A DNA stretch of 64,000 nt from Acidobacteriota bacterium (GCA_021788095.1 JAJYLB010000011.1:28593-92592), one strand, 5' to 3'; counted from the stretch's first letter, positions 20,498 to 45,432 are shown. Notes: generated by a model from the sequence alone, not told the origin. Numbers and translations: made by a program.

Positions 20498-20682
20498 TAT
20501 GACAGTTCGTCAAATCGACCCGGCCCCGGGAGCGGGAACGGACACAGACCTCGTTGCTCACGATGAAGGCGATGACCTCAATGACGTGGATCGCCACAAG
20601 CCGGGAAGTTTCCTCTTCAGCTGCCGCCGGCATGGAGGGAGATTTCACGCCTATCGGGCGGAACTGAGAACGGTTTCCTGCG

Positions 20683-27922: not shown

Positions 27923-28085
27923 CGCCGATCTCCTGGGCCACTCCCTCGACGGCCGGCCGCCGGCCTATCGGACGAGGGGAAGCCGCTCGAGCGGAGTTCT
28001 TCTGGCCCGCCAGGAGTCCCTGGCGGCATTTCAGCGCTCGCGCTCGGGCGGTTTCCACCTCGTCTCCCTCATGGGCTCGCCGCGG

Positions 28086-29348: not shown

Positions 29349-29394
29349 GGCAAATCTCCTTTTCGCGGAACTGCTTGGGAACTCGATCGTTTCC

Positions 29395-31323
29395 TCAGTG
29401 CACCTCGCTGACCTTGGGCGGCGGCAAGATCACGAGCCGGCCGGCCGGGGCGTGCGGGCTGTAAAGGTAATGGCGCGTGTCGGAGAAATTCAGCCGGCCC
29501 TTGTGGCATTCGGCGCAGCGGGCGATTTCCGGCTTTTTCTCTCGCGCGGCCACTTTCACGTGGCAGCCGTTGCATACCTCGTGCATCGCGTCGACGTAGG
29601 AAACGGCGTTGTAATTCGGGATCTCGATCGTGGCCCCGGCGGGCACAAGATTCTTGTGGCAATCGGCGCAGGGCTTCACGTGCGCCGAGGTGCGTGCGTA
29701 TCCCGGCTCGTGACACTCGACGCAGGCGAGATTCGCGCCGTGGGGCGAAGCGTGCCAATCGTGGCGGGAAGCGTCGCTCTTCTGGTACATGTCGCGATGG
29801 CACGCGTAGCAGCCGGAGTCCTGGTCGTGCGGCATGTTCATGTGGTGGCAGAGCACGCACGACTTCTCCCGGCCATTCCGCTCGATTTCCCGCTGGTGGT
29901 AGAAGGTCACGCCGTACCGCGTGAGGTCGCCATCGATGTAGAGCACGCCCCGGGGCAATTCCCCCGGCTGTCCGAGACTGGCGGCTTCCGAGACCCCGCT
30001 CCTCAAGTACCCCGCGTCGCCCCGCGCGCGATGGACGGGCGCGGGCACCGAGCCTTGCCGGGCCGCCAGGGGACTGCCCAGGAGAGCGAAACCTGCGCCG
30101 GCGGCAAATACGAACCCCAAGGAGTACTTGACGCGGCCGGCGACCGCCGGCGTGCCCAGCCAAGTGAAGCCCACCTTGTCGAATTCCGGCAGCTTCCGCG
30201 GATCGGCTTCCGGATCCGCGGGCCGGCTTTCCCAAACCCTGAAGTGTTCTATCATGAACAGAAAGGCGAGGGTCGCCGCCGCTACGATGCCCAGGCTGAC
30301 CGCGATTTCGGTCCACTTCGGCGCGTAGAGAGGGCCGCCGCGGCCGATGTCGGCCAAGCCGCCCACGTCAATTCGGTTCAGAACGACACCGGCCACGCCA
30401 ATGGCTGCCGCGGCCCCTTGCCACCCCGCTTGGCGCCGGAACCGCGTAGCGGACATCAAGGCGAGCGGCAAAATCGCCATGAGCGCCAGCTCCAGCCAGA
30501 ACAACTTGGCCTGCCACGCCCCACTCGCGAGGTAGTGGAGTTGTCCCCGAGCTGCCAGATCGCCGAACCGCGCTGCGACGTACACCGCCAGAACCCAGCG
30601 CGTCGCGGCGCCCAAGGGAGCCAACAAGCCGGTTTCCGGTTTGCGCCGGTAGAGGTATGCGGTGACGTGGCTTTCGAGGATCACCATCATGAGTCCCAGA
30701 GCGACCGCGGAGATAAAGAACAGCACGGGCAGGAGGGGCGAATACCAGAGCGGATAAAGGCGGTAAGGCATGATCAGGAAAAGCGAGCCGAGCGAGGACT
30801 GATGGAGCGTGGAAAGCGCGACGCCGAGGATGACCAAGGGGATGCGCAGCGTGAGCAGGAAACGCCGTAGGCTGGCCAGAGCGGAGATCCCCTCTGTCGG
30901 CACGGGAAAGAATTCCAGCATCAGCACCGTGAGGTAGAGCATCACGCACCAGCCGACTTCGAAGAGCGGCGAGCGCGGATTCCAGTAGATCGTTAAGTGC
31001 CAGATGTTCCAGGGCAGTCCGAGATCGAAGAGCAATCCGACGACGACGGCAACGTAGCCGAGGAAAGCGGTTAGAACCGCGGGCCGAACGATCGAGTGAT
31101 ACTCTTCCATCTTGAAGATATAGACCGTTGCGGTAACGACAAAGCCGCCGGCGGCCAGCGCGACGCCGCCCATCACGTCGAATCCGACCCACAGACCCCA
31201 AGGCGTGGCATCGGAAAGGTGCGTGGTCGCGCCAAGGCCGAAGGCGAACCTCGCCGTGGCGATGGCCGCTGCCAGCCCCACCATCACCCACAAAACGAGC
31301 TTTAGCCGAACCACCCTATCCAT
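29395..31323 (-). CDS. NrfD/PsrC-type integral membrane subunit fused to a C-terminal hexahaem cytochrome c domain
   Basis: The N-terminal ~400 aa form a polytopic NrfD-like domain ([31 protein letters not shown]). The C-terminal ~170 aa carry six CxxCH motifs: CVLCH, CYACH, CVECH, CADCH, CNGCH, CAECH. Confidence 0.8.
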
Positions 31324-32106
31324 TTACTTCTCCGGCTCCCTCTGGCCCTTGGCTTCCCCTGCGGCTTTCTCCGCTTGCAGGCGGTTGCGCCGCTCGATGA
31401 TCCAGTACAGACCGCCCATGGCCGCGCCCATCCCCAAAAAGGCAAAGGGCACGGACTCCATGGCCAAGGTCGTCGTCTGTGGCAGCGGTTCCTTACCGAA
31501 ATGCTCGCCATAGGTCAGGAAGGACAAATCGATGCCGGAGATATAGAGCACCGACGTGCCTCCCACTTCCGATTCACCCCAGACCCGGTCGAGGTACTTG
31601 CCCGGATTGCGCCGAATCCGGCGGTGAGCCTCGGCGAGCAGTTCGTCGCGGTCGCCGAAGATGGTTGCTTTCGCCGGGCACGCCTCGGTGCATGCCGGTT
31701 GGCCGCCCGCTTTGATCCGGTCGTAGCACAAGACGCATTTGCGAACGTACGGAACCACGTTGCTCCACTCGTAGCGCGGGATACCGAACGGGCAGGCCAT
31801 CATGCAGTAACGGCAGCCAATGCACTTGCTCGTATCGCAGAGCACCGGCCCGGCCGCGGTTTTGTGCATGGCGCCCACGGGGCAGGCATCGACGCACGCG
31901 GGATCGAGGCAATGCCGGCATTGCTTGCGCACGAAGGTGTTGTCCGCCGCGTCCACCACCGAACACCAGTTCTCGGCAGACAGCCCGTCGCCGAAATCCC
32001 ACCGGCGCGGGATGTCTCTCTCCAGGCGGTTCACCCTTTGGCAAGCGATCGCGCATTCGCTGCAGCCAGTGCATTTGGTGGTGTCGGTCAGGATGGCCGG
32101 TTTCAT
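31324..32106 (-). CDS. 4Fe-4S ferredoxin-type subunit (NrfC/HmcB/DsrO-like) with a C-terminal TM anchor and no obvious Tat signal
   Basis: It starts directly at the first cluster motif (MKPAILTDTTKCTGCSECAIAC). Further CxxCxxCxxxCP groups follow, then a C-terminal helix VPFAFLGMGAAMGGLYWII. Confidence 0.8.
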   Translation of the reverse strand: MKPAILTDTTKCTGCSECAIACQRVNRLERDIPRRWDFGDGLSAENWCSVVDAADNTFVRKQCRHCLDPACVDACPVGAMHKTAAGPVLCDTSKCIGCRYCMMACPFGIPRYEWSNVVPYVRKCVLCYDRIKAGGQPACTEACPAKATIFGDRDELLAEAHRRIRRNPGKYLDRVWGESEVGGTSVLYISGIDLSFLTYGEHFGKEPLPQTTTLAMESVPFAFLGMGAAMGGLYWIIERRNRLQAEKAAGEAKGQREPEK

Positions 32107-32876
32107 CGCTCCGACCCTCCTTTCCCGGCCGCTCCTTCAGGCAGCTCGGCGGTAAGACGGGCTTTCGGCAGCCAGGTAGGCCGGTCGCCGAACCCGAGCG
32201 TTTCGGCCACGCGGTCGCCGGCTCCCGCCGGGAACTTCCACGCGACAGCCGTCACCAATTGCGAGAGCGGCGCCAGCACGCAATGCGCGAGCTTGGTGAA
32301 GGGAATCATCAGGAGGATGAGGTCACCCGCGTACAGGTGGACCAGCAGGAATTCCTGGTAGGTCCGCGGACTGAGGATGGCGTTCGAGGCGATATAGCCC
32401 GTGACGAAGGGCGCCGCGATCAGCAGGGGCCAAAGGAAATCCTGCGCCTTGCTTATCTTTCGCGCCGCGGGGGAAAGCAGCCGGCCCAAGAAAAGTCCTG
32501 CCCCGGCAAAGATCACCAGCAACGTGAGCCAGTTCGCCAGCCGCCGCGGCAGAGCCGCCCAGCCAATCCCCAGCGCGTTGCGCCACAGAAGGATGTGCGA
32601 GGCCAGGAAGAGGGGTGTAACGATCATCCCCGCGTGGAAGAGAAAGGAAATCAGGCTGTAGATCGGCCTTTGCCGCCACAAACGCGCCATCGGGAACAGC
32701 CAGCCGAGGGTCTGCCGGCGGACCTCCTTCCATGCCACGATCTTGTCCGAACTGTTCTGGTATCCCTCTCGAACGCCGGCGAGCGTCAGGAGGACGATGC
32801 GCAGCAGCCCCAGCGCCATCAAGGCGAACGAGAGGCGGAACAGCGGGCCGCGCGCGAAATCGATCCAGGCGGTCAC
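32103..32876 (-). CDS. NarI/DsrM/HmcE-like membrane cytochrome b subunit
   Basis: The GTG start at 32876 overlaps the upstream stop in a GTGA motif. It is polytopic with conserved His residues (SFLFHAGMIV, SHILLW, LLVHLYAGD, KLAHCVLAP). The longer track ORF overlaps the upstream gene out of frame. Confidence 0.7.
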   Translation of the reverse strand: MTAWIDFARGPLFRLSFALMALGLLRIVLLTLAGVREGYQNSSDKIVAWKEVRRQTLGWLFPMARLWRQRPIYSLISFLFHAGMIVTPLFLASHILLWRNALGIGWAALPRRLANWLTLLVIFAGAGLFLGRLLSPAARKISKAQDFLWPLLIAAPFVTGYIASNAILSPRTYQEFLLVHLYAGDLILLMIPFTKLAHCVLAPLSQLVTAVAWKFPAGAGDRVAETLGFGDRPTWLPKARLTAELPEGAAGKGGSER

Positions 32877-34450
32877 GGTGATTCTCCCTGCCGGCCGGGC
32901 GTTTCGCCCCCTTCGATCCCTTCGCTTGCCGGCGCTTGGGCGGAGGCGGCTTCGGCCGCCGAATCGGGAGGCAAAACGATGGCCTTGTAAATCAAGTCGT
33001 GCAGGCCGACGATTTCGCAACTTACGCCCTGGTCTTCCATCAGCTCGCGCAGTTGCTTCTTGCAGTTGGCGCAAGGGGCGACGCAGTAATTCGCCTCCGT
33101 CCTCCGGATCTGCTCGGCTTTCAGCCTGCCGCTTACGGTGGTGCGGTAGGGGCGAACCTCGTCGAGCGATACCGTTCCCGCGCCGCCGCCGCAGCAGAGG
33201 TTGCTGCGGCCGTTCGGAACCATTTCCACGTACTGGGGGCAGAAAGCTTCGAGCGTGCTCCTCGGCTGCCGCACGATCCAGCCCGTGCGCGCGATGTTGC
33301 AGGGATCGTGATACGTCACCCTCTCCGAGACGATTTTCGGATCGAGCGGGATCCGCCCTTGCCGGATCGCCCGGTCGGTGTACTCGAGGATGCTGACCAC
33401 CGGCAGGGCATCCTTGCCGCCGCAAAACGCGGGATAGAAAAACTTCGCGGTGCGCGCCGCGTGCCCGCATTCGCCGATGATGATTTTCCTGGCCTTGAGC
33501 CGCTCCGCCTCCGCCCGCATTTTGCGGAGAACGTGCTCCATCACCTGATCGCTATAGAACAGGCCGTAATTGATCCCGTCGTAATACTGGCTGCCAATCG
33601 TCCAGCTATCCCCCGTGGCCTTGAAGGCGGCGGCGATGCCCTTCAGCGTCTCCGCCTCCATCATGAAGTCGGAAACGGAAGTGAAGAAAATGTACTCGGC
33701 GCCTTCCCGATCCACCGGGAAAGGCACGTGCACGCCTTTTTCGTCTTGGATGTCTTCGGTGAGGAATTCCAGCGTATCGAGCAGCGCGGGCAGGGGAATC
33801 GCCGAGGTATTGGCCGTCTTGCCCGTCAATTGCTCCCGCGTGCTGACCACCAGGGCCCGCGGCGCGATGCCGATTTCCGAGAGGATGTAGCGTCCCAGGT
33901 GGGCGATTAGCGCGTGGTCGATGCCCATCGGGCATTCGAAATGGCAGCGGCGGCAGGCGGTGCAGTTGTAGTAGGAATCCGCCATCTCCTGAATCTTCTC
34001 GTCGGTCAGGCCGGGATCGGCCAGAACGCGCGCGCGCAGTATCCCGGAAAGCGTGAAATGCCTGCGGTAAATCGAGAGAAGCATCTCCGAGCGGTAACAA
34101 GGGACATCGCGAGAATCGCCCGTGGCGTCGTAAATGGGGCAGGCGACGGCGCAGCGGGCGCAACGCGCCGCCACACGAACGTAGTGGTCGAGCGCAAGGC
34201 GATAGTTCGTATGCTTGAGGATGGAAGCGAAGACCTCGAGGAAGCGCCGCGGGCGGTCCGCGACGTCGCAATCCTCCACGTGGTAGCGCACCGGCAGGCG
34301 CTGCCGGGCCATCGCGTCGGGTTTCTTGGGCGTCGAGTACGCCTTCTCCCGCTCGCCCGGTTCGAGCGGCCGCGTGAGCGACTTCATCACCGATCCCATT
34401 CTGGTCTGCCCGTTTCGAAATCCCTTGGCTTCGCGAGCGACTTCCGCCAT
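32873..34450 (-). CDS. HdrD/DsrK/HmcF-like CCG-domain iron-sulfur protein (third DsrK paralog)
   Basis: Ferredoxin motifs CARCAVACP and CTACRRCHFECP. CCG-domain motifs HDPCNIAR, LCCGGGAG and CAPCANCKKQL. Confidence 0.8.
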   Translation of the reverse strand: MAEVAREAKGFRNGQTRMGSVMKSLTRPLEPGEREKAYSTPKKPDAMARQRLPVRYHVEDCDVADRPRRFLEVFASILKHTNYRLALDHYVRVAARCARCAVACPIYDATGDSRDVPCYRSEMLLSIYRRHFTLSGILRARVLADPGLTDEKIQEMADSYYNCTACRRCHFECPMGIDHALIAHLGRYILSEIGIAPRALVVSTREQLTGKTANTSAIPLPALLDTLEFLTEDIQDEKGVHVPFPVDREGAEYIFFTSVSDFMMEAETLKGIAAAFKATGDSWTIGSQYYDGINYGLFYSDQVMEHVLRKMRAEAERLKARKIIIGECGHAARTAKFFYPAFCGGKDALPVVSILEYTDRAIRQGRIPLDPKIVSERVTYHDPCNIARTGWIVRQPRSTLEAFCPQYVEMVPNGRSNLCCGGGAGTVSLDEVRPYRTTVSGRLKAEQIRRTEANYCVAPCANCKKQLRELMEDQGVSCEIVGLHDLIYKAIVLPPDSAAEAASAQAPASEGIEGGETPGRQGESP

Positions 34451-34501
34451 CCTGGCGAGCCGCGAAGCCCCTGCCCGCGGGCGTATCCGGCATCGTGGCC
34501 G

Positions 34502-34903
34502 TCACGCATGCCCGCGTTCCCGCACGCCAAGAAGCTGGTGGATCTTGGCCAGAAGCTTTTCACGGTCCAAGGGCTTGTCGAAGTACCCTGCGGGCGGGCG
34601 CACTTGCTTGCGCGTCTCGATGAACTGCTTGAAGTCATGCGTAATCCCGGTGATGATGATGACCGGGACGTTCGACGTTACCGGGTCCGTTTGCAAGTCC
34701 CGGAACATGCGAACTCCCGATTCCTTCGGCATCGAGATGTCGAGCGTGATCAGATCCGGATGATTCGCCTTCGCCTTTTCAAAGCCCTCGCGGCCATCCG
34801 GCGCCGTGATCACGGCGAAACCCTCGTCCTGCAAAAACGCCTTGAGGTAGGCGGTCTGGTCCGGCTCGTCTTCGACGACCAGGATTGTCTTCAGGGTGGT
34901 CAT
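34502..34903 (-). CDS. single-domain response regulator (receiver only)
   Basis: ILVVEDEPD, DLITLDISMP, PVIIITG. 133 aa with no output domain. Confidence 0.85.
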   Translation of the reverse strand: MTTLKTILVVEDEPDQTAYLKAFLQDEGFAVITAPDGREGFEKAKANHPDLITLDISMPKESGVRMFRDLQTDPVTSNVPVIIITGITHDFKQFIETRKQVRPPAGYFDKPLDREKLLAKIHQLLGVRERGHA

Positions 34904-35424
34904 GGGGTTACCCCCCTCTTCTTTTTCAAGGCATCGAGTGCCCTTTCGACTGCCTCACGGTCGGCGCCGGAGACGGCGCGAGAGACTTCCTGGCGCAAGT
35001 CTTCGGATCGAGCTTGCGGTGGCTCCTGGGCCTGCAGGCCCAGGATGCGGCGGACGGCAGCCACGTAAGTGTCGGGATGCAAGGGCTTCTCCAGATACAC
35101 CCCGGGGCCCGACATCGTCATCTCTTCGAAGTCCGCCTTGCCCAGGTCGTCCCGCGCGTGACCGGTGACGATGAGGACCGGGATCTTCGAGAGCAGTTTG
35201 TCCTTCCGCAGTTCGTGATAGAACTGGCCTCCGGAATACCGGGGCATCACCAGATCCAGCGAAACGAGATCCGGCGGATCGCATCTCACCTTCTCCAGCG
35301 CTTCCAGGCCGTCCGCGGCCGTCTCCACAACGAATCCCGCATCCGTGAGCGCGCTCCTTAAGTACTCGCGGATGTCCGGCTCGTCATCCACCACCAACAC
35401 CCGCCTCGGCTGATCGTCGTTCAT
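34900..35424 (-). CDS. response regulator, receiver domain plus a short helical tail, no DNA-binding domain
   Basis: VLVVDDEPD, DLVSLDLVMP, PVLIVTGH. A ~50-aa C-terminal tail has no recognisable output domain. Confidence 0.85.
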   Translation of the reverse strand: MNDDQPRRVLVVDDEPDIREYLRSALTDAGFVVETAADGLEALEKVRCDPPDLVSLDLVMPRYSGGQFYHELRKDKLLSKIPVLIVTGHARDDLGKADFEEMTMSGPGVYLEKPLHPDTYVAAVRRILGLQAQEPPQARSEDLRQEVSRAVSGADREAVERALDALKKKRGVTP

Positions 35425-36920
35425 GGCAGCTTCCCCTCCGCTGGCACGCTGGCAGGAGGCGCCGCGAGCGCCTGCAAGCGGCTGCGCGGCAGCCGGATAC
35501 GAAAAATCGATCCCTGCCCGGGAACGGACTCGAAGTCCATCCGCCCTCCATGCTCCTGCACGATCTTCCGCGTCGTCAGGAGGCCCAGCCCGGTTCCCTT
35601 TCCTCCCTTGGTGGTAAAGAACGTGGTGAAGATCTTGGATTTGATCTCCTGATCGATCCCGCAGCCGTTATCGGCGACTTCGAAAACCAGGTCGTTACCC
35701 ACGTCCCGGGTGCGCACGCTTACCTTGCCGCCCGTCTGGCCGGGTTTGGTGGCGGCGTCGATACCGTTCGAAACAAGGTTGGTCAGGCAGGTCTCCATGC
35801 CGCGTGCATCGAGCATCGCTTCCGAAACGTCTGGCGAAGCTTCCAGGACGAGGTCGACGCCTTGATTCGCTGCGGCATCGTGGTAGAGGTCCACGACGTT
35901 GCGAGCCAGGGCTTTCGGGTTGGCTGGCGCAAGCTCCGGCGGCCGGCCTTTGGCAAAACTGAGGAAATCCTTCACCAGTGTGGTCGTCTTCTCGAAGTTG
36001 CGCTTCAGGATTTCCCAGCCGTTCACGATGCGCTCGGCATCGCTTCGTGCGAGGCCGGTGTCCACCATGTACATCCCGCCCTCGAGCCCCATCAGCAGGT
36101 TCTTGATCGTGTGCGCCAGCCCCGCCACGGTCTGGCCGACCGCCGCCAATCGCTCCGCGTCCAGCCGCTCCTGTTCAAGCTGCTTCATCTCCCGAAGGTC
36201 CTGCATCAACGCCGCCCTGCCCAGCTTCGTTCCCCGGCTCCTCAACTCGACGGCGGAGAACCGAACGGGGACCTCCTCGCCGCCGACGGCGTGCAGGGAG
36301 GTTTCCGGCATGTTGACGACGGTCCCGTTTTCCTGCGCCGGCGCGAAAAATTCCTGGGGAAGCATCGCGCGCAGCTGGTCCGGCGCGGGCGGTCGAGCCG
36401 ATGTCCAATGGAGTAGGGCGCGTGCAGCCGGATTGATGATGCGAATCTCGCCGGCCGTATCCACGGCCAGGATGCCCGATGCCGCATTCCGCACCAGGCT
36501 CTCGTAGAAATCGTCGGCTTTCCTGAGGTCCGTCTCTAACTCGCGGACTTCCGTGACGTCGGCAGCCATCTCGATGACGTGAGCCACGCCGTGCGCGCCC
36601 CGGGAAAGCGCCGCCGTGGTGACCACGTAGTACGCTGGCGTCCCATCCTGGCGGAGGCCCACCTGCTCGGAGACATGCTCGGTGCCGTCCCGAAAGGTGA
36701 GCGCCGCGGGACAGCGCGAACACGGTTTCTTCCGCCGCTTGTAAACCTGGTAGCAATACCTGCCCTCAGCCTCGCCGAAGGCTTGACGGAATTTCTCATT
36801 GGCCCTGACGATGCGGAAATCCCGGTCGATCACCGAGACGTAGCACGGCACGCGCTCGAAGAGCAGATTGTATTGGCGCTGCCAACGCCCCGTTTCCCTC
36901 ATGCGGGCCCATTCCCTCAT
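35421..36920 (-). CDS. cytoplasmic PAS-PAS histidine kinase with a four-Cys first PAS domain
   Basis: The ATG at 36920 shares one nt with the upstream TGA. H-box GLAHTIKNLL and HATPase motifs NLVSNGIDA, DNGCGID and GGKGTGLGL are present, with no TM segment. Cys26, Cys56, Cys67 and Cys70 lie in PAS1 (CYQVYKRRKKPCSRCP). Confidence 0.8.
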   Translation of the reverse strand: MREWARMRETGRWQRQYNLLFERVPCYVSVIDRDFRIVRANEKFRQAFGEAEGRYCYQVYKRRKKPCSRCPAALTFRDGTEHVSEQVGLRQDGTPAYYVVTTAALSRGAHGVAHVIEMAADVTEVRELETDLRKADDFYESLVRNAASGILAVDTAGEIRIINPAARALLHWTSARPPAPDQLRAMLPQEFFAPAQENGTVVNMPETSLHAVGGEEVPVRFSAVELRSRGTKLGRAALMQDLREMKQLEQERLDAERLAAVGQTVAGLAHTIKNLLMGLEGGMYMVDTGLARSDAERIVNGWEILKRNFEKTTTLVKDFLSFAKGRPPELAPANPKALARNVVDLYHDAAANQGVDLVLEASPDVSEAMLDARGMETCLTNLVSNGIDAATKPGQTGGKVSVRTRDVGNDLVFEVADNGCGIDQEIKSKIFTTFFTTKGGKGTGLGLLTTRKIVQEHGGRMDFESVPGQGSIFRIRLPRSRLQALAAPPASVPAEGKLP

Positions 36921-38527
36921 CAATGCCACTCCCACTCGAGGAAGCCCGGCTTCACGTCCGACATGGCATTCACGATCAGCTCGACCAACCCGCCGTAGAG
37001 GATCCGGTGTTTCTCCCAGAGGCCGTAATAGGTGAACATGTCCCGGAACTGGCCTTTGCAGTTGCTGCACGGGGCGCAGACGTATTTCGGGATCGAGGGG
37101 TCGAGGCAATCCTCGAAAGCGGTGAGGATTTGCAAGAGTTTCTTGCGGCCCGACACCTGGAAGCGCCAGTCCTGGAAATTGTTCCCGCTGATGATGGCGA
37201 ACCCGCTTCCCCCGCCGCAGCAATAGTTCATCACGCCGTGAGGTTCCATCTCCCTGAACTGCGGGCACAGCTTGCGAAGGATTTCCCGCTGCGGTTCGAC
37301 CACGCCCATCAAACGCACCAGATTGCAGGGATCGTGCAGGGTCACGGGGAAATCGTTGCGGGCGGGGTCGAACCGGATCCGGCCGCTCGTGACGATGTCG
37401 CGCAAGAGCGTCAAGGAGCTTTCCCGCGGGATGTTGAGATCCCCCGTGAGCACGCGGTCGGCGATCAGCGTCAGGGCCTTGTGCGCGTGACCGCATTCGC
37501 CCAGAACGATCTTCTTGACTTTGAGTTTGCGCGCCGCTTCGGCGTGCTTGATCGCCACACGCGCGAATTGGGCGTCGTCGTAAAACACCCCGTAGTTGAT
37601 CGAGTCGTATCCCGCCAGCTCCGAAGACAGCGTCCAGGAAATCCCGGCGGCATTCAGCAGGAGGGCGAAGGCGCCGGGATTGTCGGGCCAGGCCACGATC
37701 TCGCCCGCATTGTGGATCAGCAGAATATCCGCCCCCTCGACGTCCCAGGGAGTCTTCACCGCAATGCCAGCCCGCTCGCTCGTGTCCTCGTCGATGAAAT
37801 CCATGTTGTCTCTTACGGCTGCGGCATTCATCCCCGTGGAAGAGCCGACGCGGAGCTGCAGCATGGACCCTTTCTCGTGCAGCTCTTTGGCGGTGATCCC
37901 CATCTCCTGGCTGAACACTTTCCGCAATTCGCGGGCGACCAAGCCGTTGTCGGCCCCGATGGGACACGCCTGGGCGCAGCGCCGGCACAGGTTGCAGCGG
38001 TAGCAAAGCTCGAGCAATCGGGCGACCAGAGGCCAGTTGAGTTGGATGTCGCCGTGCTGCCAGGCCGAGAGCAAGCCCCCGCGCTTGACGTATTTGAAGT
38101 AGAGGCGGCGCACGATCTCGGTGCGGAACGTGGGGCGGTAAATCTCGTTCCGGCCGCTGGCTTCGAAAATGTGGCAGGCGTCGGAACACGTCTGACACTT
38201 GGTGCAATGCTCCATCGTCAGCACGAGCGGTTGGAGGAAAGTCCAGTTGTTGTCCCGGTTGAACAGCTTCTCGAGGCCCGAAAGGAATTTCCCGACGAGT
38301 TCGTCTTCCTCCTGCTTGGTTTTCGGTTGTGGGAAATTGACGACGCACGTGTCGTCAAGGAAGCATTCGCACCCCGCCAGGGTTTGCGCCGGGAGCGGAG
38401 GCCAGTCGTGCTGGCCGGCGGGACCGTCGTAGGGCGGCGGCAGCGGCATCAGGTCCCTGCCCTCAAGATGAGTCAACGGTTCCCTGGCGGTCTTGGAGAT
38501 ATCCGCGACCTTGATTTTCTGCCTCAT
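36920..38527 (-). CDS. DsrK/HdrD-like CCG-domain iron-sulfur protein (second DsrK paralog)
   Basis: The ATG at 38527 overlaps the upstream stop (ATGA). Motifs CTKCQTCSDACH, CYRCNLCRRCAQACP, HDPCNLVR, NYCCGGGSG and CAPCSNCKGQF. Confidence 0.8.
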   Translation of the reverse strand: MRQKIKVADISKTAREPLTHLEGRDLMPLPPPYDGPAGQHDWPPLPAQTLAGCECFLDDTCVVNFPQPKTKQEEDELVGKFLSGLEKLFNRDNNWTFLQPLVLTMEHCTKCQTCSDACHIFEASGRNEIYRPTFRTEIVRRLYFKYVKRGGLLSAWQHGDIQLNWPLVARLLELCYRCNLCRRCAQACPIGADNGLVARELRKVFSQEMGITAKELHEKGSMLQLRVGSSTGMNAAAVRDNMDFIDEDTSERAGIAVKTPWDVEGADILLIHNAGEIVAWPDNPGAFALLLNAAGISWTLSSELAGYDSINYGVFYDDAQFARVAIKHAEAARKLKVKKIVLGECGHAHKALTLIADRVLTGDLNIPRESSLTLLRDIVTSGRIRFDPARNDFPVTLHDPCNLVRLMGVVEPQREILRKLCPQFREMEPHGVMNYCCGGGSGFAIISGNNFQDWRFQVSGRKKLLQILTAFEDCLDPSIPKYVCAPCSNCKGQFRDMFTYYGLWEKHRILYGGLVELIVNAMSDVKPGFLEWEWH

Positions 38528-39465
38528 TTCTTGCCGCCCTGTGCTGGATTGGTGATCGCGATTTCCGCCCACGTCTTGGCGCCATCGGCGCCGATGTGCG
38601 GCGCGGCCCACGTCGGCCGATAGGTCAGCATCTCGGCGATCCTCTTCTCGATCCCGCTTCCCCTCCCATTGGGCTGGTCGCCCCAGCGCACGGAGTGGTA
38701 GGTGAAATACTTCGCGATGAAATGCGACATATGCGTCAGCGGGATGTAGGCCACGAGCAGCGCGCCCAGTACCAAACCGAATCCGAAGAGCGCCGGGACC
38801 CGCAACCCTGCGTCGAAAGTCAGCAGGCCTCGCGCGAGGGCGAACGCGCTGAAGGAACCCTTGCCGCGCCAAAGGTAGCCGGCGGCCAAAAACCCAGCTG
38901 CGACGATGAAGAACAATAGATTAAAGATGTCGGCGGGCGTCGTATAGGGCTTGAGATCAGCGTCCGTGAGCCTCTGGAGGAGCAAACCCGCCGCGCCCGC
39001 CAGCGTCAATCCGATCCCGGCCGGCCCGAGGATCACGCAGGCGCCGTGGAGAACGATGCCTGGCCCGGCAGCCCAAGATCGAGGTGCGACGATCCAGAGG
39101 AAGGCGCTCGAAAAGAGAAGCGCTGTCGCGCCAAACAGCAGGTAGAGACCGAGGTGAAAGGGATAGGAGCGATACCACGTCTTCTTCTTGAACTCCCAGA
39201 GCCCTTTCAGGAAGAGCATCTCCGCCAGCATGGCCTTCAGCTCGCCAGACCGGTTGAATTTGGCGGGTTGGGTCCACCAGTCCTTCATTTCAAAATACGA
39301 ACCGCCATGCGCTGCTCGCCCCTTCTCCTCGTGAGGCACGGGGTAGATTTCCCAGCGCAGGTGCAGCGGCAGCCGCGCATAGCCCGCGGCTCGAACGATG
39401 CTGGCCACGACAAAGACCGCCAAGCTGGCGTACAAGACGGCATAGATTGCGATCGTGCTCACCAT
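38524..39465 (-). CDS. DsrM/NarI-like membrane cytochrome b (second DsrM paralog)
   Basis: Polytopic, with N-terminus MVSTIAIYAVLYASLAVFVVASIVRAAGYARLPLHLRWEIYPVPHE and PFHLGLYLLF. It is paired with a DsrK-like gene. Confidence 0.75.
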   Translation of the reverse strand: MVSTIAIYAVLYASLAVFVVASIVRAAGYARLPLHLRWEIYPVPHEEKGRAAHGGSYFEMKDWWTQPAKFNRSGELKAMLAEMLFLKGLWEFKKKTWYRSYPFHLGLYLLFGATALLFSSAFLWIVAPRSWAAGPGIVLHGACVILGPAGIGLTLAGAAGLLLQRLTDADLKPYTTPADIFNLLFFIVAAGFLAAGYLWRGKGSFSAFALARGLLTFDAGLRVPALFGFGLVLGALLVAYIPLTHMSHFIAKYFTYHSVRWGDQPNGRGSGIEKRIAEMLTYRPTWAAPHIGADGAKTWAEIAITNPAQGGKK

Positions 39466-39508
39466 GGTTGGGCGTCTCCCTTGACCGCGTTGCGAGCCAC
39501 CGATGCCA

Positions 39509-40810
39509 TCACCGGCGATCCCTTCCGGAGGTCCCGTCTCCCGATGCCGGGAACTGTCCCGGGCTCGATAAAACGCCGGCCTGGCTCGCGTGCGCCGCCG
39601 ACCCGACAGGGCCGCGGGCGCCCCCGGGCTCGTAAGTAGGCGAATGTTCCGCTCCCTCCTCCGCGTTCACGGCGATGGCGATCTTGTAGAACACCGTGAT
39701 CATCAAGGCGCCCGCGGCCCAGACGCCAAGCGTGATGGTGACTTCGGGCAGGGTGGGAACGTAGCTCGTGACGGCGCCCAGGGGCGAGGGGGAGAAGCCG
39801 CACACCACCAGGCACACGCCCTTGTCCATCCAAAGCGAGGTAAACACCGCCGCACACGCGATCGTCAGCCATCTCTCGCTACGGCGCAGCCGAGGAACCA
39901 GTAGTGGCGCCAGCGCCGCGAACATCAGGAGCAGGGAGACTTGGCCGAAAACGCCGAGCAGGGTCGGCCCGCCTTGTCCGAGGTACATCAGCTTGAGGTG
40001 CTCGGTGAGCTCGGGGACGTGGCTGTAAAAGGCCGTGAAGAGTTCCATCATGAGGAGGAAAACGTTGGCGAGCATGGCGTAAGTCACGACCACCGCCAGG
40101 CCGTCGATCGCTTTCTTGCCGACGTCGTATCCCGTGAGTTTTCGCGCCAGCAGACACAGAAGGATCAGTAGGGCGGGCCCGGCGGCGAAGGCCGAAGCCA
40201 GGAAGCGAGGGGCGAGCACCGCCGTGCGCCAGAACATCCGCCCCGGCAAACCGCAGTACAAGAACGCGGTGACCGTATGAATGCTGATGGCCCAAGGAAT
40301 CGAGAGCCGAATCACGGGAGAGAGCCAGCCGGCGAGCGGCAGATTCTGCTGCTCCGCGTGCAGCGCGTTGACCGTGATGATCGCGTTCAGGAAGAGATAA
40401 CCGGAAAGCGAGACCATGTCCCAGAACATGATCGAGTGGAATTGCGGGTAGAGGATGACGTTCAACGCGCGCGTGGGACTTCCCATGTCGATCAGGATGA
40501 ACGCCAGGCACATCGTCACCGCGGCCACCGCCAGCGATTCCCCCAGAATGGTCATGCGGCCGAATTCCCTGCGGTTGTGCAGATAGTAGGGAATCACCAC
40601 CATCACCGCCGACGCCGCAATTCCCACCAGGAAGGTGAACTGGCCGATATACAGCCCCCAGGAAACGTTCCGGCTCATTCCCGTGATGCCCAGCCCGTAG
40701 CGGAGTTGGTGGAGATAGACGACGAAGGCAACCCCGATGAAGGCAACGAGGCCCGCGACCCAGAGCTGGTATCTCCGGCTGCCCTCGAGCGCCTTTTCGA
40801 ACAGGAACAT
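39509..40810 (-). CDS. dsrP: DsrP, NrfD-type membrane subunit of DsrMKJOP
   Basis: Ten-TM NrfD-like protein (GMSRNVSWGLYIGQFTFLVGIAASAV) directly after dsrO. Confidence 0.85.
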   Translation of the reverse strand: MFLFEKALEGSRRYQLWVAGLVAFIGVAFVVYLHQLRYGLGITGMSRNVSWGLYIGQFTFLVGIAASAVMVVIPYYLHNRREFGRMTILGESLAVAAVTMCLAFILIDMGSPTRALNVILYPQFHSIMFWDMVSLSGYLFLNAIITVNALHAEQQNLPLAGWLSPVIRLSIPWAISIHTVTAFLYCGLPGRMFWRTAVLAPRFLASAFAAGPALLILLCLLARKLTGYDVGKKAIDGLAVVVTYAMLANVFLLMMELFTAFYSHVPELTEHLKLMYLGQGGPTLLGVFGQVSLLLMFAALAPLLVPRLRRSERWLTIACAAVFTSLWMDKGVCLVVCGFSPSPLGAVTSYVPTLPEVTITLGVWAAGALMITVFYKIAIAVNAEEGAEHSPTYEPGGARGPVGSAAHASQAGVLSSPGQFPASGDGTSGRDRR

Positions 40811-40820
40811 CGTCCACGCC

Positions 40821-41597
40821 TCAGATCCGGTAATAGATGTTGGGTCCGGTGCCCAACTCGGGCTTTCTCCGCAAGACGTAGCTCTCGCTCAGCACCTCGC
40901 GCACCTCGGAATGGGGATCGTTCACGTCGCCGAAGAGCAGGGCTTTCTCGGGGCAGGCTTCGACGCAAGCCGGCAATTTCCCCGCGACCACACGCTCGGA
41001 ACAGAACGTGCACTTCTCCACCACGCCCAGGGTTCTTGTGGGGAAATCGGGGTTGGGATTCGCGAGGTACGCGCGCGGATCGACCCAATTGAAGCTGCGC
41101 GCTCCGTAGGGACACGCGGCCATGCAGTATCGGCAGCCGATGCAGCGGTGCCAATCCATCATCACGATCCCATCTTCCTCGCGCTTCCAGGTGGCGCCGG
41201 TGGGACACACACGCACGCAAGGCGGCTGGTCGCAGTGGTTGCACAAGACGGGAATTTGCTCGTCGCGGCGCGCGGCGTCCAGGTACTGGACGTCGCTTTC
41301 GTCGAACACAACGTCGGCCGGCTCGTTCCAGATCCACTGGATTTCGTGGGCCTTGTCGGGGATGGCGGGGATGTTGTGCGCCGCGTCGCACGCCTCGATG
41401 CAGCGGGTGCAACCCGGCTCCTTGGCGCACTTCGCCGTATCCACGATCATCGCCCACTGCTTGCGCGGCCGCGGCTTCGCGCCGCCCGGGAAGGTAGCCC
41501 CGGCGGCGCGGTCGAGAGCGGCAAGTTCCCGGCCGCCGAACACCAGAACGAGCCCCGCGCCGGAGAGCTTCAGGAACTCCTTCCTCGTGATCTTCAT
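40821..41597 (-). CDS. dsrO: DsrO, periplasmic 4Fe-4S ferredoxin-like subunit
   Basis: From the ATG at 41597, a Tat-like leader MKITRKEFLKLSGAGLVLV. Cluster motifs CNHCDQPPCVRVCP, CIGCRYCMAACP and CTFC...CVEACP. Confidence 0.85.
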   Translation of the reverse strand: MKITRKEFLKLSGAGLVLVFGGRELAALDRAAGATFPGGAKPRPRKQWAMIVDTAKCAKEPGCTRCIEACDAAHNIPAIPDKAHEIQWIWNEPADVVFDESDVQYLDAARRDEQIPVLCNHCDQPPCVRVCPTGATWKREEDGIVMMDWHRCIGCRYCMAACPYGARSFNWVDPRAYLANPNPDFPTRTLGVVEKCTFCSERVVAGKLPACVEACPEKALLFGDVNDPHSEVREVLSESYVLRRKPELGTGPNIYYRI

Positions 41598-42013
41598 CGC
41601 GCGGCCCCTTTCCCGAGTGCGGGGTCCACGTGGCAATTCCAGCAGTAGGGCGTTCGCGCGCCGACGTAATCGTGGCAGCGATCGCAGAATTCGCGCTTGT
41701 CGTGGCAAGAGAGGCAGGTCTTCGTCAGGCTCTTCGGGTAGGTCTTGCCGTCGTACGCAACGTAGGTCGGGTTGTTTTCGCGCACCGCGCTTTGGCGCCA
41801 GTCCAGTAACAGTTGCATGTGGGAACCGCGCATGAAATCGAGTGGAGCCACGCACTGCTTCGCGTGGGCCGGCAGCACGAGCGCCGGAGGCCGCGTATTG
41901 GCGTGAGTTTCCCAATCGCGCCAGGTGGGAAGGGTCGCCACGCCGACGAACAGAAGCAATCCGCCGAGGATCCAGAACTTGTCACGCATGAATCGCCTCG
42001 GCTCCCTGGCCAA
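41594..42013 (-). CDS. dsrJ: DsrJ, trihaem cytochrome c subunit
   Basis: N-terminal membrane anchor and three haem motifs CLSCH, CDRCH and CWNCH. The more likely start is the ATG at 41989 (MRDKFWIL). Confidence 0.85.
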   Translation of the reverse strand: MAREPRRFMRDKFWILGGLLLFVGVATLPTWRDWETHANTRPPALVLPAHAKQCVAPLDFMRGSHMQLLLDWRQSAVRENNPTYVAYDGKTYPKSLTKTCLSCHDKREFCDRCHDYVGARTPYCWNCHVDPALGKGAAR

Positions 42014-43601
42014 GCGGCTGCCCGCGGAGGTCCGTCGTCCTCTCCTTCTCCCCTTTCATCACCAGCGCGTTGCCCACCAGCTCGTGCACCCCGCCCACTT
42101 CGACTCCGGGCGCCCAGTACGCGAGCGCGGTGGGAAGCGTGGCCTTGTCGATCGCGCAGATGCAGGTGAGCAGATTCACCCCGTACTTGTCGCGCACGTA
42201 CTTCACCGCGTTCGCGCGCGGCAATCCGCCGCGCAGACGCATCTCGATGTTTTCATCCGAGCCCAGGCCGGCCCCGCTGCCGCAGCAGAACGTCTGCTCG
42301 CGAATCGTGTTTTCGGGCATCTCGTGGAAGCGGTTCGCCACCCTTCGCAGGATGTAGCGCGGCTCTTCGAGCAAGCCCATGGCGCGCGCCGGATTGCAGG
42401 AGTCGTGGTAAGTCACCGTCCAGTGGTCGTTGCGGCGGGAATCGAGTTTCAGCTTATGGGCGTGGATCAGGTCGGCGGTGAATTCGCAGATGTGCACCAT
42501 CTTCGTCGAGCGCGCGTTCTCGAATCGGGTTCCCGTAACCGGGGAAACCGGCTCTTCCAGGAAATCCGCCGGGCCGTTGAGCGTGTCCATGTATTGATGG
42601 ATCACGCGCCACATGTGCCCGCACTCCCCGCCCAGAACCCACTTCACGCCCAGCCGCTTCGCTTCCGCGTAGATCTTGGCGTTCAGCCGCTTCATCATTT
42701 CGTGCGAGCTGAACAGGCCGAAATTCCCGCCTTCGGAAGCGTAGGCGCTGAAGGTGTAATCGAGCCCGATCTCGTGGAAGAGCGCCAGGTACCCCAGCAG
42801 CGTGTAGTAGTGCGGCGTGGCGAAGTAATCGGCGGAAGGAACCACGAAGAGAATCTCGGCGCCCTTGCGGTTGATGGGCGCCTCCACCCGGACCCCGGTC
42901 AGGTCCTCCAGATCGTCCACCGCGAAGTCGATGCTGTCTTTGAATCCGTGGGGCTGAATGCCCAGGTGGTTCCCGGTCCGGTAGCAGTTCGCGGCGGGCT
43001 CCAGCACCCAGTTGGTGTTCACGCCCACCAGGTTCAACAGCTCGCGCACCATCATCGTGATCTCGGCGGTATCGATTCCGAAGGGGCAAAAGACGGAGCA
43101 GCGCCGGCATTCCGTGCATTGGTAGAAGTAGTAGAACCACTCCTTGAGGACGTCTTCGGTCAGGTCCCGGGCTCCCGCCAGGCTTCGAAAGACCTTCCCC
43201 GCCGTCGTGAAATAGCGGCGGTAGACTGAGCGGATGAGTTCGGCCCGCAGGACCGGCATGTTCTTCGGATCGGCCGAGCCAAGATAGAAATGGCACTTGT
43301 CCGCGCACGCCCCGCAGCGTACGCAGATGTCCATGAACAGGCGGAAGGAGCGGAATCGTTCCAGCCGCTCCTTCATCCCCGCGAGGATGATCTCCTTCCA
43401 ATTCGGCGGCAGCTTCCAATCCTGGTCGGTCGGCTGCCAATCGCGGGGATTGGGCAGCTCCAGATAACGCACGCTCTTCGCCCCTGCGGCGTGGCAGAAA
43501 GTTCCCTTGCGGAATTCCACCGGGCTCCCGCGCCAGTCCCCCGGCGGCGGATCGTAGCTGATCCGAACCAGTTCCTCGGGTCGTGTCGCGGTCTCAGGCA
43601 C
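41982..43601 (-). CDS. dsrK: DsrK, catalytic CCG-domain subunit of DsrMKJOP
   Basis: Motifs CVRCGACADKCH, CTECRRCSVFCP, HDSCNPAR and TFCCGSGAG, in the canonical position after dsrM. Confidence 0.9.
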   Translation of the reverse strand: MPETATRPEELVRISYDPPPGDWRGSPVEFRKGTFCHAAGAKSVRYLELPNPRDWQPTDQDWKLPPNWKEIILAGMKERLERFRSFRLFMDICVRCGACADKCHFYLGSADPKNMPVLRAELIRSVYRRYFTTAGKVFRSLAGARDLTEDVLKEWFYYFYQCTECRRCSVFCPFGIDTAEITMMVRELLNLVGVNTNWVLEPAANCYRTGNHLGIQPHGFKDSIDFAVDDLEDLTGVRVEAPINRKGAEILFVVPSADYFATPHYYTLLGYLALFHEIGLDYTFSAYASEGGNFGLFSSHEMMKRLNAKIYAEAKRLGVKWVLGGECGHMWRVIHQYMDTLNGPADFLEEPVSPVTGTRFENARSTKMVHICEFTADLIHAHKLKLDSRRNDHWTVTYHDSCNPARAMGLLEEPRYILRRVANRFHEMPENTIREQTFCCGSGAGLGSDENIEMRLRGGLPRANAVKYVRDKYGVNLLTCICAIDKATLPTALAYWAPGVEVGGVHELVGNALVMKGEKERTTDLRGQPLGQGAEAIHA

Positions 43602-44601
43602 GGGTCCGCTCCTTCTCCAGAGGAAGACCCGCGCTCGCGATCTTGTCGTGAAATTCCTCTTCCCACTCCTGGTAGGTGTGCACTTTGACGGGATAGTCCC
43701 AGGGATTCACATGCCGCCGGGCGCGGCTGTCGTTGGCCAGGTTGCGCGTGGGACTGAGGAAGATCCCGCCCATGTGCATCAGCTTGCTGAATGGGAAGTA
43801 GGCGAGCAGAAGGCTCGCGAAAGTCAGATGAACGAAAAACAGCGGCCCCACGCTCGCGGGGACCAACGGGGAAAACGTGACCAGTCCCAGAGCGAGTTGC
43901 TTGATGCCCTCGAGATCCACTTTCGTGAAGTACCGCATCAGGATTCCGGTGATCGCGATTCCCAGGAGCAGAAAAAGGGCGAAAAAGTCGCCGGGGAGCG
44001 ACAGGTAGCGAACGCGCCCGTTCGCAAACCGCCGCGCGAGAAGGTAGAGAAGCGCGGCGACGATGACGGCGTCGGTCACGAACAACTGAGGAGCGCCGAT
44101 CTGCAGGAAGCCGTCCACGGCGTCCAGAGCCGGCAGGAAAGCGGGCACGGGGCTGAGGAAGTAGCGGAGATGGCGAACCAAAACGACGAGCAGCGACCAG
44201 TGGAAGGCCAGGGCCCCCAGCCACAGCCACTTGTTCTCGGCGTAGAGCAGCCTCGGTCCCTCTTCTTCGAGCCGCGCCTGGCTGTTTCGGAAAAGCGACC
44301 GGAACAGGAGGATCTCCAAAGCCATGCGCGCCGCAACACCCGCCTTGTGATTCGGGTTCTCGATGGGGTTCGATCGAATCCACCCGAGGCTCTTTTGCTG
44401 TCCGCAAGTGGTGGGAATGTGGAAAGGCAGCGCGGACCAGGCCCAACGCACTACGCGGAAACTGAATCCGATGAGGAAAATTCCCATGGCGGCGTAGGGC
44501 AGGACGACGCCCAGCAGCGCGCGCGTTCCCGGCAGCAGCCCGCCCGCGTAGGCGAGGCCGGCAACCCCGAGAATCGCGGCCAGTGGAACGAGCGCTTTCA
44601 T
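43594..44601 (-). CDS. dsrM: DsrM, membrane dihaem cytochrome b
   Basis: NarI-like polytopic protein (LPFHIPTTCGQQKS, LAFHWSLLVVLVRHLRYF, FSKLMHMGGIF), the first gene of the dsrMKJOP block. Confidence 0.9.
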   Translation of the reverse strand: MKALVPLAAILGVAGLAYAGGLLPGTRALLGVVLPYAAMGIFLIGFSFRVVRWAWSALPFHIPTTCGQQKSLGWIRSNPIENPNHKAGVAARMALEILLFRSLFRNSQARLEEEGPRLLYAENKWLWLGALAFHWSLLVVLVRHLRYFLSPVPAFLPALDAVDGFLQIGAPQLFVTDAVIVAALLYLLARRFANGRVRYLSLPGDFFALFLLLGIAITGILMRYFTKVDLEGIKQLALGLVTFSPLVPASVGPLFFVHLTFASLLLAYFPFSKLMHMGGIFLSPTRNLANDSRARRHVNPWDYPVKVHTYQEWEEEFHDKIASAGLPLEKERTRA

Positions 44602-44614
44602 GAACCCTTCACCC

Positions 44615-45091
44615 TTACCCCTCCCGGGAATACATCCTCTCCAGTTGCGCGACCCGTCGCCGGGCCTCGTCCGCTTGGATCTGGTAGATCTGCTCGCGAA
44701 AGCGCATGAAGAGATCGAAGGCGGCCAGCGCCAGCTCGTCCACGCGTTCCTCCCACCGGGCGAGCGTCTCCCAGTCCGCCGCGGACTCCTCCCGCAAGAT
44801 GGTCTTCAACCCGAAGAGGAAACCCACCGCTTCCCTCGCGGAGAACCGCTGCACGGCGCGCAGTCGCATCAGGTCTTCCAAGGCGGCGCCCACCTTCCCC
44901 GCATCCATCTCCCCGAAAAGCTCCTCCACGAGTTCGGGAATGCGCTTGCGAAGCGCCTGGCCCGCGGGATTCCGGAACGGATCCCTCTGATCCACCAGGA
45001 ACCGCCGCGACGGGACCGGATACGTCTGGACCGCCAGGGCGAGCCATCGCTCCGCCATCGCGTGCTTCCGCGCGGGGGAAATGCCGGCCAT
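44615..45091 (-). CDS. dsrT: DsrT-like protein (RsbRD N-terminal-domain family)
   Basis: The ATG at 45091 is preceded by AGGAGGAGCC. DPFRNPAGQALRKRIPELVEELF and LMRLRAVQRFSAREAVGFLFGLKTILREE resemble the RsbRD_N domain. The position between dsrC and dsrM fits DsrT. Confidence 0.6.
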   Translation of the reverse strand: MAGISPARKHAMAERWLALAVQTYPVPSRRFLVDQRDPFRNPAGQALRKRIPELVEELFGEMDAGKVGAALEDLMRLRAVQRFSAREAVGFLFGLKTILREESAADWETLARWEERVDELALAAFDLFMRFREQIYQIQADEARRRVAQLERMYSREG

Positions 45092-45099
45092 GGCTCCTC

Positions 45100-45417: not shown

Positions 45418-45432
45418 TCTGGCTCCTTCCTC

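Follow-up and report, generated by a model that had tools for sequence, protein, structure and literature searches.

A Cys-PAS histidine kinase and two receiver-only proteins associated with HdrD-like redox modules in an acidobacterial sulfate-reduction gene cluster

Five genes downstream of dsrP

The stretch of DNA analyzed here (64,000 nucleotides of a Terriglobia-like, metagenome-assembled contig from an Acidobacteriota bacterium, GCA_021788095.1 JAJYLB010000011.1:28593-92592, hereafter called the window) carries on approximately 35 kb of its minus strand a single dissimilatory sulfate-reduction cluster, in which genes for a histidine kinase and two receiver-only response regulators (RR174 and RR133) lie between genes for two sets of redox proteins. 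The cluster comprises, in order, dsrN, aprB, aprA, a CxxCxxCC gene, qmoA, qmoB, and qmoC; then dsrA, dsrB, an 82-residue gene in the dsrD position, a dsrL-like gene, dsrC, and a dsrT-like gene; then dsrM, dsrK, dsrJ, dsrO, dsrP, M2, K2, the kinase gene, RR174, and RR133; and finally K3, M3, B3, C3cyt, sat, and several TauE genes. Our comparisons lead to a correction of the annotation, in that the signaling genes belong to the Hmc-like complex encoded by K3-M3-B3-C3cyt and not to the dsrM2K2 pair that they adjoin. The genes under study, all on the minus strand, are as follows.

39509..40810, minus strand: dsrP, the last gene of the canonical dsrMKJOP set (Pfam NrfD, E 3.4e-37).
38524..39465, minus strand: M2, a membrane protein of 313 residues and remote DsrM/NarI homologue (PF02665 Nitrate_red_gam, a weak match of 24.9 bits).
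36920..38527, minus strand: K2, a cytoplasmic HdrD/DsrK-like iron-sulfur (Fe-S) protein of 535 residues (Pfam Fer4_8 and CCG).
35421..36920, minus strand: a soluble histidine kinase of 499 residues (Pfam PAS_4, PAS, and HATPase_c (E 1e-25)).
34900..35424, minus strand: RR174, a receiver-only protein of 174 residues (Pfam Response_reg only, residues 9-124).
34502..34903, minus strand: RR133, a receiver-only protein of 133 residues (Pfam Response_reg only).
32873..34387, minus strand: K3, a third HdrD/DsrK-like paralogue, cytoplasmic (CCG and Fer4_8).
32103..32876, minus strand: M3, a TmcC/HmcE-like cytochrome b with four heme-ligand histidines.
31324..32106, minus strand: B3, an HmcB/DsrO-like multicluster ferredoxin (Fer4_11, E 9.8e-23).
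29395..31323, minus strand: C3cyt, an NrfD-like membrane subunit with a C-terminal cytochrome c (NrfD and Cytochrom_CIII).

An initial annotation of this locus had described the five genes that follow dsrP as a second DsrMK pair joined by tightly coupled reading frames to a kinase and two receivers. The gene lengths and junctions that it gave were confirmed by reading the sequence: the dsrP stop codon and the M2 start are separated by 43 nt, the M2/K2, kinase/RR174, and RR174/RR133 junctions are ATGA overlaps, and K2 and the kinase gene share a TGATG overlap (36918-36922). Its account of the domains also agreed with Pfam, where neither receiver shows an output domain. M2 has five hydrophobic segments, and K2, the kinase, RR174, and RR133 have none. 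The G+C content at third codon positions is 0.78-0.80 for the five genes.

When the five genes were compared with their counterparts at loci L002-L005, the ratio of nonsynonymous to synonymous substitution rates (dN/dS) was 0.04-0.23 for every one of them, with dS near saturation. Purifying selection, as judged from these sequence comparisons, acts on all five genes. M2K2 is no duplicate in decay, because its genes share these low ratios and because the catalytic cysteines of K2, like its cluster cysteines, are 100% conserved in 79 orthologues. Chance open reading frames or pseudogenes were likewise considered and were ruled out by the dN/dS values together with the retained catalytic residues.

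The signaling genes as the end of an Hmc-like operon

To place the kinase, we used a sample of 63 loci centered on kinases that are at least 50% identical (a metagenome scan plus L087-L089). C3cyt lies directly upstream of the kinase gene in 39 of 41 loci (28 of 30 clusters after de-replication at 90% kinase identity), and all four genes of the complex are upstream in 26 of 27. The gene that follows the kinase is of the RR174 type in 55 of 56 loci, and both receivers follow in 46 of 47, whereas K2 is present in just 2 of the kinase-centered loci. In L087-L089 the order is K3-M3-B3-C3cyt-kinase-receiver-receiver, with C3cyt and the kinase overlapping by 4 nt in the gene calls, and in L149 this same series directly follows dsrMKJOP with no M2K2 in between. 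These data show that the kinase, RR174, and RR133 constitute the signaling end of a conserved seven-gene operon. The candidacy of M2K2 as the partner of this kinase and its receivers, on which the initial annotation had been built, was overturned by this sampling.

Two further results bear on the same claim. Locus L005, from a Terriglobia metagenome-assembled genome (MAG) whose K2 is 82% identical, retains dsrC-dsrMKJOP-M2-K2 and proceeds directly to sat, lacking the kinase, both receivers, and K3-M3-B3-C3cyt. In a neighbor-joining tree without support values, RR133 nests within the clade of receivers from K3 operons rather than with the second DsrMK pair; receivers from beside M2K2 and receivers fused to K-type proteins form other clades.

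The order M2-K2-kinase-receiver-receiver-K3-M3-B3-C3cyt is common to the window and L002-L004, and L130 likewise has M2-K2-kinase-receiver-receiver on a contig that ends after the receivers. The comparison shows that this order is derived, the signaling genes having been relocated in front of K3, and as a result they now abut a separate, catalytically intact M2K2 module.

The tight junction between K2 and the kinase gene, which had been taken as an argument for translational coupling, has a different origin. Among the 120 closest clusters of kinase homologues, 117 have proteins of at least 595 residues, mostly approximately 611, and the window kinase aligns only to residues 119-611 of the homologue P0392, its N terminus being shorter by approximately 118 residues. 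The missing part is an additional Cys-PAS domain that the 611-residue orthologues carry. In L002-L004 a kinase of 611 residues is preceded by a gap of 88-112 nt after K2, and the window lacks that spacer. A deletion of approximately 450 nt is thus shown to have removed both the first PAS domain of the kinase and the spacer, and the TGATG overlap is lineage-specific because it was created by this deletion.

The remaining domains of the kinase are a Cys-PAS domain (C25...C55-x10-C66-x2-C69), a second PAS domain, an H-box, and the ATPase domain. Across 44 kinases of the 611-residue type, the C-x10-C-x2-C motif shows 100% conservation in each of the two PAS domains; the motif also recurs in more distant kinases, and the H-box histidine (H382 of P0392) is 100% conserved. 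Three-cysteine PAS domains that bind Fe-S clusters are documented for OrpR (PMC8359166) and NreB (PMC13478379), and the kinase family has the invariant cysteine triad in the PAS core that characterizes such sensors. A search of solved structures with the Cys-PAS domain gave no useful match. By analogy, the kinase probably senses for itself through a Cys-PAS domain resembling the Fe-S sensor type, with putative binding of a cluster.

The complex that precedes the signaling genes in the conserved operon is a transmembrane one and has the full set of subunit types found in Hmc and Tmc, namely a periplasmic multiheme cytochrome c, a ferredoxin, an NrfD-like protein, a cytochrome b, and an HdrD-like protein. 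C3cyt carries six CxxCH motifs, and B3 has no obvious signal peptide. The start of K3 is uncertain (34387 gives 504 residues and 34450 gives 525), and its cluster and catalytic cysteines are conserved in 27 orthologues. Four M3 histidines (H81, H94, H180, and H198) are 97-100% conserved, from which M3 is predicted to be a diheme cytochrome b. Neither protein reaches the Hmc/Tmc equivalog cutoffs, as K3 scores 186 bits for HmcF (cutoff 750) and 197 bits for TmcB (cutoff 735), and M3 scores 133.9 bits for TmcC (cutoff 240) and 131.2 bits for HmcE (cutoff 275). In CO124, the MAG of a sulfate-reducing acidobacterium, expression of the K3-M3-B3-C3cyt orthologues was turned on when conditions were anoxic and sulfate was being reduced (PMC10564751, Supplementary Data 2).

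Receivers beside and fused to HdrD-like subunits

For both receivers the best NCBIfam family is DVU0259_DivK (NF045717, cutoff 160), with 98.5 bits for RR133 and 81.5 bits for RR174. RR133 contains the conserved segment TG..HDFK.FIE.RKQV.PP.GY..KP, and RR174 has a weakly conserved C-terminal helical extension of approximately 45 residues. The RR133 group conserves D12, the phospho-acceptor D55, and position K110, and the residues of the phospho-pocket were also read directly in both window receivers. At the level of sequence, the elements of a two-component system are therefore in place, comprising the histidine and ATPase domain of the kinase and the acidic pocket, aspartate, and lysine of the receivers.

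Receivers of this kind are also linked to M2K2. We sampled neighborhoods of K2 by using one genome per species (269 relatives, of which the best 80 loci were kept, with flanks of up to 10 kb covered). M2 precedes K2 in every locus. Of 76 evaluable loci, 55 have a receiver-only gene on the same strand no more than 400 nt downstream of K2; a receiver-only gene is found 200 nt or less upstream of M2 in 20 of 70 loci, and a receiver adjoins M2K2 on at least one side in 51 of 67 species loci, across phyla. These receivers are of two types, short like RR133 and longer like RR174, and are paralogues of the window receivers. Of 42 loci, only 21 have a related kinase gene no more than 5 kb from M2K2. 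The arrangement is not peculiar to one genome, since the signaling family is conserved beside HdrD/NarI-like (MK) modules.

Several M2K2 loci depart from this pattern. M2K2 occurs inside dsr operons without receivers in L005, L027, L035, and L041-L043, and in L085, L030, and L078 the gene immediately upstream of M2 encodes an Rrf2 regulator. OrpR-like sigma-54 activators, most with the PAS triad C-x8-C-x3-C, are encoded within 4 kb of M2K2 in 22 of the 80 species loci (including L036, L052-L056, L060, L064, L067, L071-L075, and L079-L081), which suggests redox-dependent transcription of M2K2 in Myxococcota and Desulfobacterales. Because M2K2 can stand without signaling genes or behind other sensors, it fits a regulated enzyme better than a dedicated sensor.

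A direct link between receiver and redox protein was found in a whole-library search with K2, which recovered an HdrD-like protein with a C-terminal receiver (P0188). Its K part is 31% identical to K3 and 29% to K2, and its receiver is 40% identical to RR133 and has the same unusual segment. This fusion architecture is shared by at least 119 of the 120 best family clusters (P0271-P0389), which come from many phyla, and these proteins are named by NCBI only as "response regulator." The fusion loci (L082-L084 and the L086 set) have the order [Rrf2]-[TmcC-like protein of approximately 220 residues]-[K-receiver fusion]-[PAS kinase]-[receiver], with an Rrf2 gene often present, and the Cys-PAS motif of the window kinase recurs in their kinases. 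In L086 the fusion set and M2K2 flank a single kinase-receiver pair. The DVU0259 family is again the best match for the fused receiver and for the free receiver of L084. An AlphaFold model of the K-receiver fusion has a mean confidence score (pLDDT) of 86.9 and a predicted template modeling score (pTM) of 0.71, and its receiver superposes on DivK, RR468, FrzS, and CheY with TM scores of 0.85-0.94 (relative to the target). In the window, the K and receiver proteins are encoded by separate genes. The fusions are strong evidence that receivers of the RR133 type would work in physical contact with K-type subunits, and by gene order and fusion the genes of this signaling family are linked widely to HdrD-like redox enzymes.

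The M2K2 module itself is a divergent relative of DsrMK. M2 gave no match to the NCBIfam DsrM model (NF038037), but its alignment to DsrM by hhalign has a probability of 98.2% (E 2.9e-14, 20% identity). Canonical DsrM has four heme-ligand histidines, two each in helix 2 and helix 5, of which M2 keeps two: H104 and H248 align to DsrM H134 and H276, and the positions of DsrM H144 and H258 have no histidine in M2. The pair that is kept would bind the heme proximal to the cytoplasm, and the pair for the distal heme is missing, so that M2 may be a one-heme anchor without charge movement across the membrane. Further invariant histidines of the M2 family are H35, H45, H245, H257, and H290, and its cytoplasmic loop is strongly conserved.

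K2 has a full five-cysteine CCG motif, two 4Fe-4S motifs, and the GECGH cysteine, the GECGH motif being invariant across DsrK, K2, and K3. On the DsrK equivalog model (NF045796, cutoff 400 bits), K2 scores 317.6 and K3 286.3, compared with 733.6 for the true DsrK of the window. The CAPC(S/A)NCK motif that the second and third DsrK paralogues had been said to share is approximate, as K2 has CAPCSNCK and K3 has CVAPCANCK; canonical DsrK does differ, with CICAIDK. Canonical DsrK often has aspartate in place of the last CCG cysteine, whereas paralogues have cysteine there, and the GECGH cysteine is common to all (PMC10861901). Relatives of K2 are found in Acidobacteriota, Myxococcota, Desulfobacterales (including a Desulfosudis oleivorans genome), Planctomycetota, Chloroflexi, and other groups, with 63-88% identity across phyla. 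Among solved structures only EtfD matched K2, and weakly. DsrC-like genes were found near M2K2 in only three loci, each lacking one or both C-terminal DsrC cysteines, and gave no clue to the substrate.

Other genes of the window were noted in passing. Divergent from dsrN, at the head of the cluster and on the plus strand, are a GAF-PAS-PAS kinase of the HisKA_3 type (59446-62244) and a NarL/LuxR-type DNA-binding response regulator (62219-62857), which may be candidates for transcriptional control of the cluster. The CxxCxxCC gene (PF03692, 276 residues, 53987-54817) lies between aprA and qmoA, and gene 1368 of MAG CO124, which is annotated like it, was co-expressed with the pathway. Between dsrB and dsrC are the short dsrL-like gene (45433-46641, approximately 400 residues, with Fer4_20, an NAD-binding domain, and a C-terminal ferredoxin) and the 82-residue gene in the dsrD position (46701-46949), which has no Pfam match. 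Past the sulfur cluster, positions 17720-22986 hold a peroxidase-family gene (catalase-peroxidase-like), a PIN-domain gene, and siroheme synthesis genes (tetrapyrrole methylase and precorrin-2 dehydrogenase-like). A promoter and terminator scan of 28000-46000 returned counts equal to chance expectation and was uninformative on operon boundaries.

Possible functions and relation to known systems

The initial observation of signaling genes next to a DsrMK-like pair is confirmed, and its interpretation is partly supported. Our best explanation, which we hold tentatively and as falling slightly short of probable, is that the kinase senses, phosphorylates the receivers, and through their binding to a K subunit tunes electron flow. 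The soluble kinase would sense cytoplasmic redox state or sulfide by its own Cys-rich PAS domain, maybe with an Fe-S cluster, by analogy with OrpR and NreB, and would phosphorylate RR174 and RR133. The receivers would then bind an HdrD-like K subunit, with K3 as the main candidate and K2 as a possible second target, and binding would adjust, post-translationally, how electrons flow between quinones or cytochromes at one end and cytoplasmic thiols/disulfides (DsrC) at the other; one receiver would perhaps be a phosphate sink. An action on K subunits is suggested because natural fusions exist, because paralogous receivers adjoin M2K2 (51/67), and because the receivers have no output domain yet keep Asp55 and Lys110. 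Transcriptional control may lie elsewhere, since a separate kinase and NarL-type regulator are encoded at the cluster head.

Several points weigh against this explanation. Binding of the receivers to K3 or K2 is proposed from gene adjacency and fusion, and the model of the fusion, with its pTM of 0.71, is compatible with either a docked or an undocked receiver. C-terminal receivers, as in the fusions, are also typical of feedback or sink domains, as opposed to enzyme-controlling switches. The Fe-S PAS assignment is by analogy, with cysteine spacing unlike that of NreB or OrpR and with no solved structure that matches. Finally, the one relative that has been studied, rrf1/rrf2, suggests a transcriptional role, in the regulation of hmc expression (Keon 1997, as cited in 10.1101/2023.11.02.564894).

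The direction of the signal could instead be reversed, such that an MK module (M2K2 or K3M3) is the sensory input and the redox state of its quinone or thiol/disulfide site is relayed to the kinase. The HdrD-like subunit might reduce or oxidize the PAS cysteines of the kinase, as in an ArcB-like quinone sensing split over two proteins, with the receivers carrying or draining the signal. This account, the one first proposed for M2K2, has attractions: Cys-PAS kinases co-occur with three K subfamilies (K3, K2, and the fused K'), K2 and K3 keep all residues expected for thiol/disulfide chemistry, the soluble kinase is unable to contact quinones itself, and a receiver that is fused to K or lies next to it could hold the cognate kinase close to the active site of K. 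The account loses weight because the conserved neighbor of K is the receiver (51/67) and not the kinase (21/42 within 5 kb), and because M2K2 stands behind unrelated sensors, be it Rrf2 proteins or OrpR-like activators (22/80). M2K2 also occurs in dsr operons that have no signaling genes, as in L005, and the cysteine motif of the kinase resembles that of PAS domains that sense by their own Fe-S cluster. We judge an MK input to be rather unlikely. An action of the receivers on transcription of the respiratory operon, in which they pass phosphate to or titrate a DNA-binding partner elsewhere (an Rrf2-type repressor or a sigma-54 activator) and leave the enzyme untouched, seems to us quite unlikely. 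The description of rrf1 and rrf2 as regulators of hmc expression would favor it, as would the Rrf2 genes that flank related modules in L082, L083, L085, and L088, the OrpR-like activators within 4 kb of M2K2, and the regulator and kinase genes beside hmc and tmc in Desulfococcus multivorans (PMC5109826). However, the 64-kb window contains neither an Rrf2 gene nor a sigma-54 activator, these operons encode no phosphotransfer (Hpt) protein, an Rrf2 gene or activator is nearby in only some of the kinase-centered loci, and the natural K-receiver fusions would be left unexplained.

It is very improbable that the arrangement has no functional meaning, with M2K2 a decaying duplicate or the signaling genes mere passengers. 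The junction between K2 and the kinase is indeed lineage-specific and made by deletion, and L005 does without signaling genes. Nevertheless, this idea is largely refuted by the conservation data, that is, the dN/dS values of all five genes, the invariant catalytic cysteines of K2, the seven-gene order kept in 26 of 27 loci, and the recurrence of the receiver-K link in three K subfamilies. Our preferred explanation, a kinase acting through receivers on a K subunit, can be put more boldly, in a form that we regard as somewhat doubtful: the receivers would be phospho-switchable regulatory subunits of HdrD-like catalytic subunits, by which the kinase gates respiratory electron flow without transcription. 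The K-receiver fusions, the M2K2-receiver modules, and the seven-gene operon could then be versions of one ancient mechanism spanning Desulfobacterota to Acidobacteriota, and such a switch, if real, could set the direction in which dissimilatory sulfur metabolism runs or the way it is coupled.

Two open questions in the field are how sulfate reducers and sulfur-cycling Acidobacteria switch or balance the flow of electrons among the quinone pool, the cytochromes of the periplasm, and the DsrC cycle of the cytoplasm, and what the numerous Hmc, Tmc, and DsrMK paralogues do. A signaling module that is consistently wired, and even fused, to HdrD-like subunits offers a concrete handle on both in the form of defined kinase/receiver/enzyme sets, one of them from the genome of Desulfosudis oleivorans, a cultured species. 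An action of the receivers on the enzyme would make this one of few cases in which phosphorylation directly controls a respiratory complex, and with the complex as the sensor, quinone or thiol redox state would be reported in a new way. Through this widespread, ancient, and unstudied link, the control of Hmc/Tmc-like and DsrMK-like modules becomes testable. No description of the seven-gene operon, the K-receiver fusions, or the receiver-M2K2 link was found in the literature searched, and Hausmann 2018, Dyksma and Pester 2023, Diao 2023, Barbosa 2024, and Rajeev 2011 mention no kinases or receivers beside DsrMK-like or Hmc-like genes.

Among sensors of known function, OrpR and NreB are similar to the kinase in having a PAS domain with three invariant cysteines, which in those proteins are needed for redox or sulfide sensing. 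The OrpR-type triad is C-x8-C-x3-C, in contrast to the C-x10-C-x2-C of the kinase family, and the kinase shows no detectable sequence relationship to NreB. The receivers resemble CheY, DivK, and CpdR, single-domain receivers that act by protein binding, in consisting of a receiver only. We know of no studied precedent for a respiratory Fe-S enzyme subunit as the target of a receiver.

The closest studied counterpart of the operon is hmcABCDEF-rrf1-rrf2 of Desulfovibrio vulgaris Hildenborough, where rrf1 is a response-regulator gene. Both clusters encode a cytochrome c, a ferredoxin, an NrfD-like protein, a NarI-like cytochrome b, and an HdrD-like subunit and place regulatory genes after the structural genes, and Rrf2 genes flank relatives of the window modules (L088, L082, L083, and L085). 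In the window, however, the gene order is reversed (K-M-B-C), HmcD is not present, a six-heme cytochrome fused to NrfD replaces the separate 16-heme HmcA, a Cys-PAS kinase and two receivers are found with no Rrf2 gene, and K3 and M3 fall far below the HmcF and HmcE equivalog cutoffs. The hmc operon was described by Rossi 1993 and Keon 1997, and rrf1 and rrf2, downstream of hmcF, regulate its expression (Keon 1997), both according to the citations in 10.1101/2023.11.02.564894. In D. multivorans, response-regulator and kinase genes adjoin the hmc and tmc genes, an arrangement that has been likened to that of D. vulgaris (PMC5109826).

The Tmc complex (tmcABCD) also combines HdrD-like and NarI-like subunits. 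The DVU0259 gene, which we take to lie next to the tmc genes, names the nearest receiver family (NF045717), from which all receivers examined here differ in scoring 73-109 bits against the cutoff of 160; no mention of DVU0258, DVU0259, or DVU0260 was found in the literature searched. M2K2 is one of the dsrM2K2 paralogues of sulfate reducers and peatland Acidobacteria (Hausmann 2018, PMC6018796; Barbosa 2024, PMC10861901), and like them it is linked to dsr genes in several phyla. As in the DsrK paralogues of Archaeoglobus, K2 has the GECGH cysteine and a cysteine where canonical DsrK has aspartate. It differs from the published paralogues in that M2 lacks the distal-heme histidine pair and is not recognized by the DsrM model. 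The best solved match to the K-type fold is EtfD of Mycobacterium smegmatis (PDB 9ojn; Foldseek E 1e-16 with the K' model), which similarly joins a cytochrome b to an HdrD-like module and is linked to quinone, yet in EtfD the two parts are fused in one chain, which accepts electrons from ETF and has no signaling partner. Because none of them reaches the thresholds for DsrK, DsrM, HmcF, HmcE, TmcB, TmcC, and DVU0259, the proteins K2, M2, K3, M3, RR174, and RR133 are relatives of these families and not members, and the case is one of Hmc/Tmc-like and DsrMK-like modules with attached regulators.

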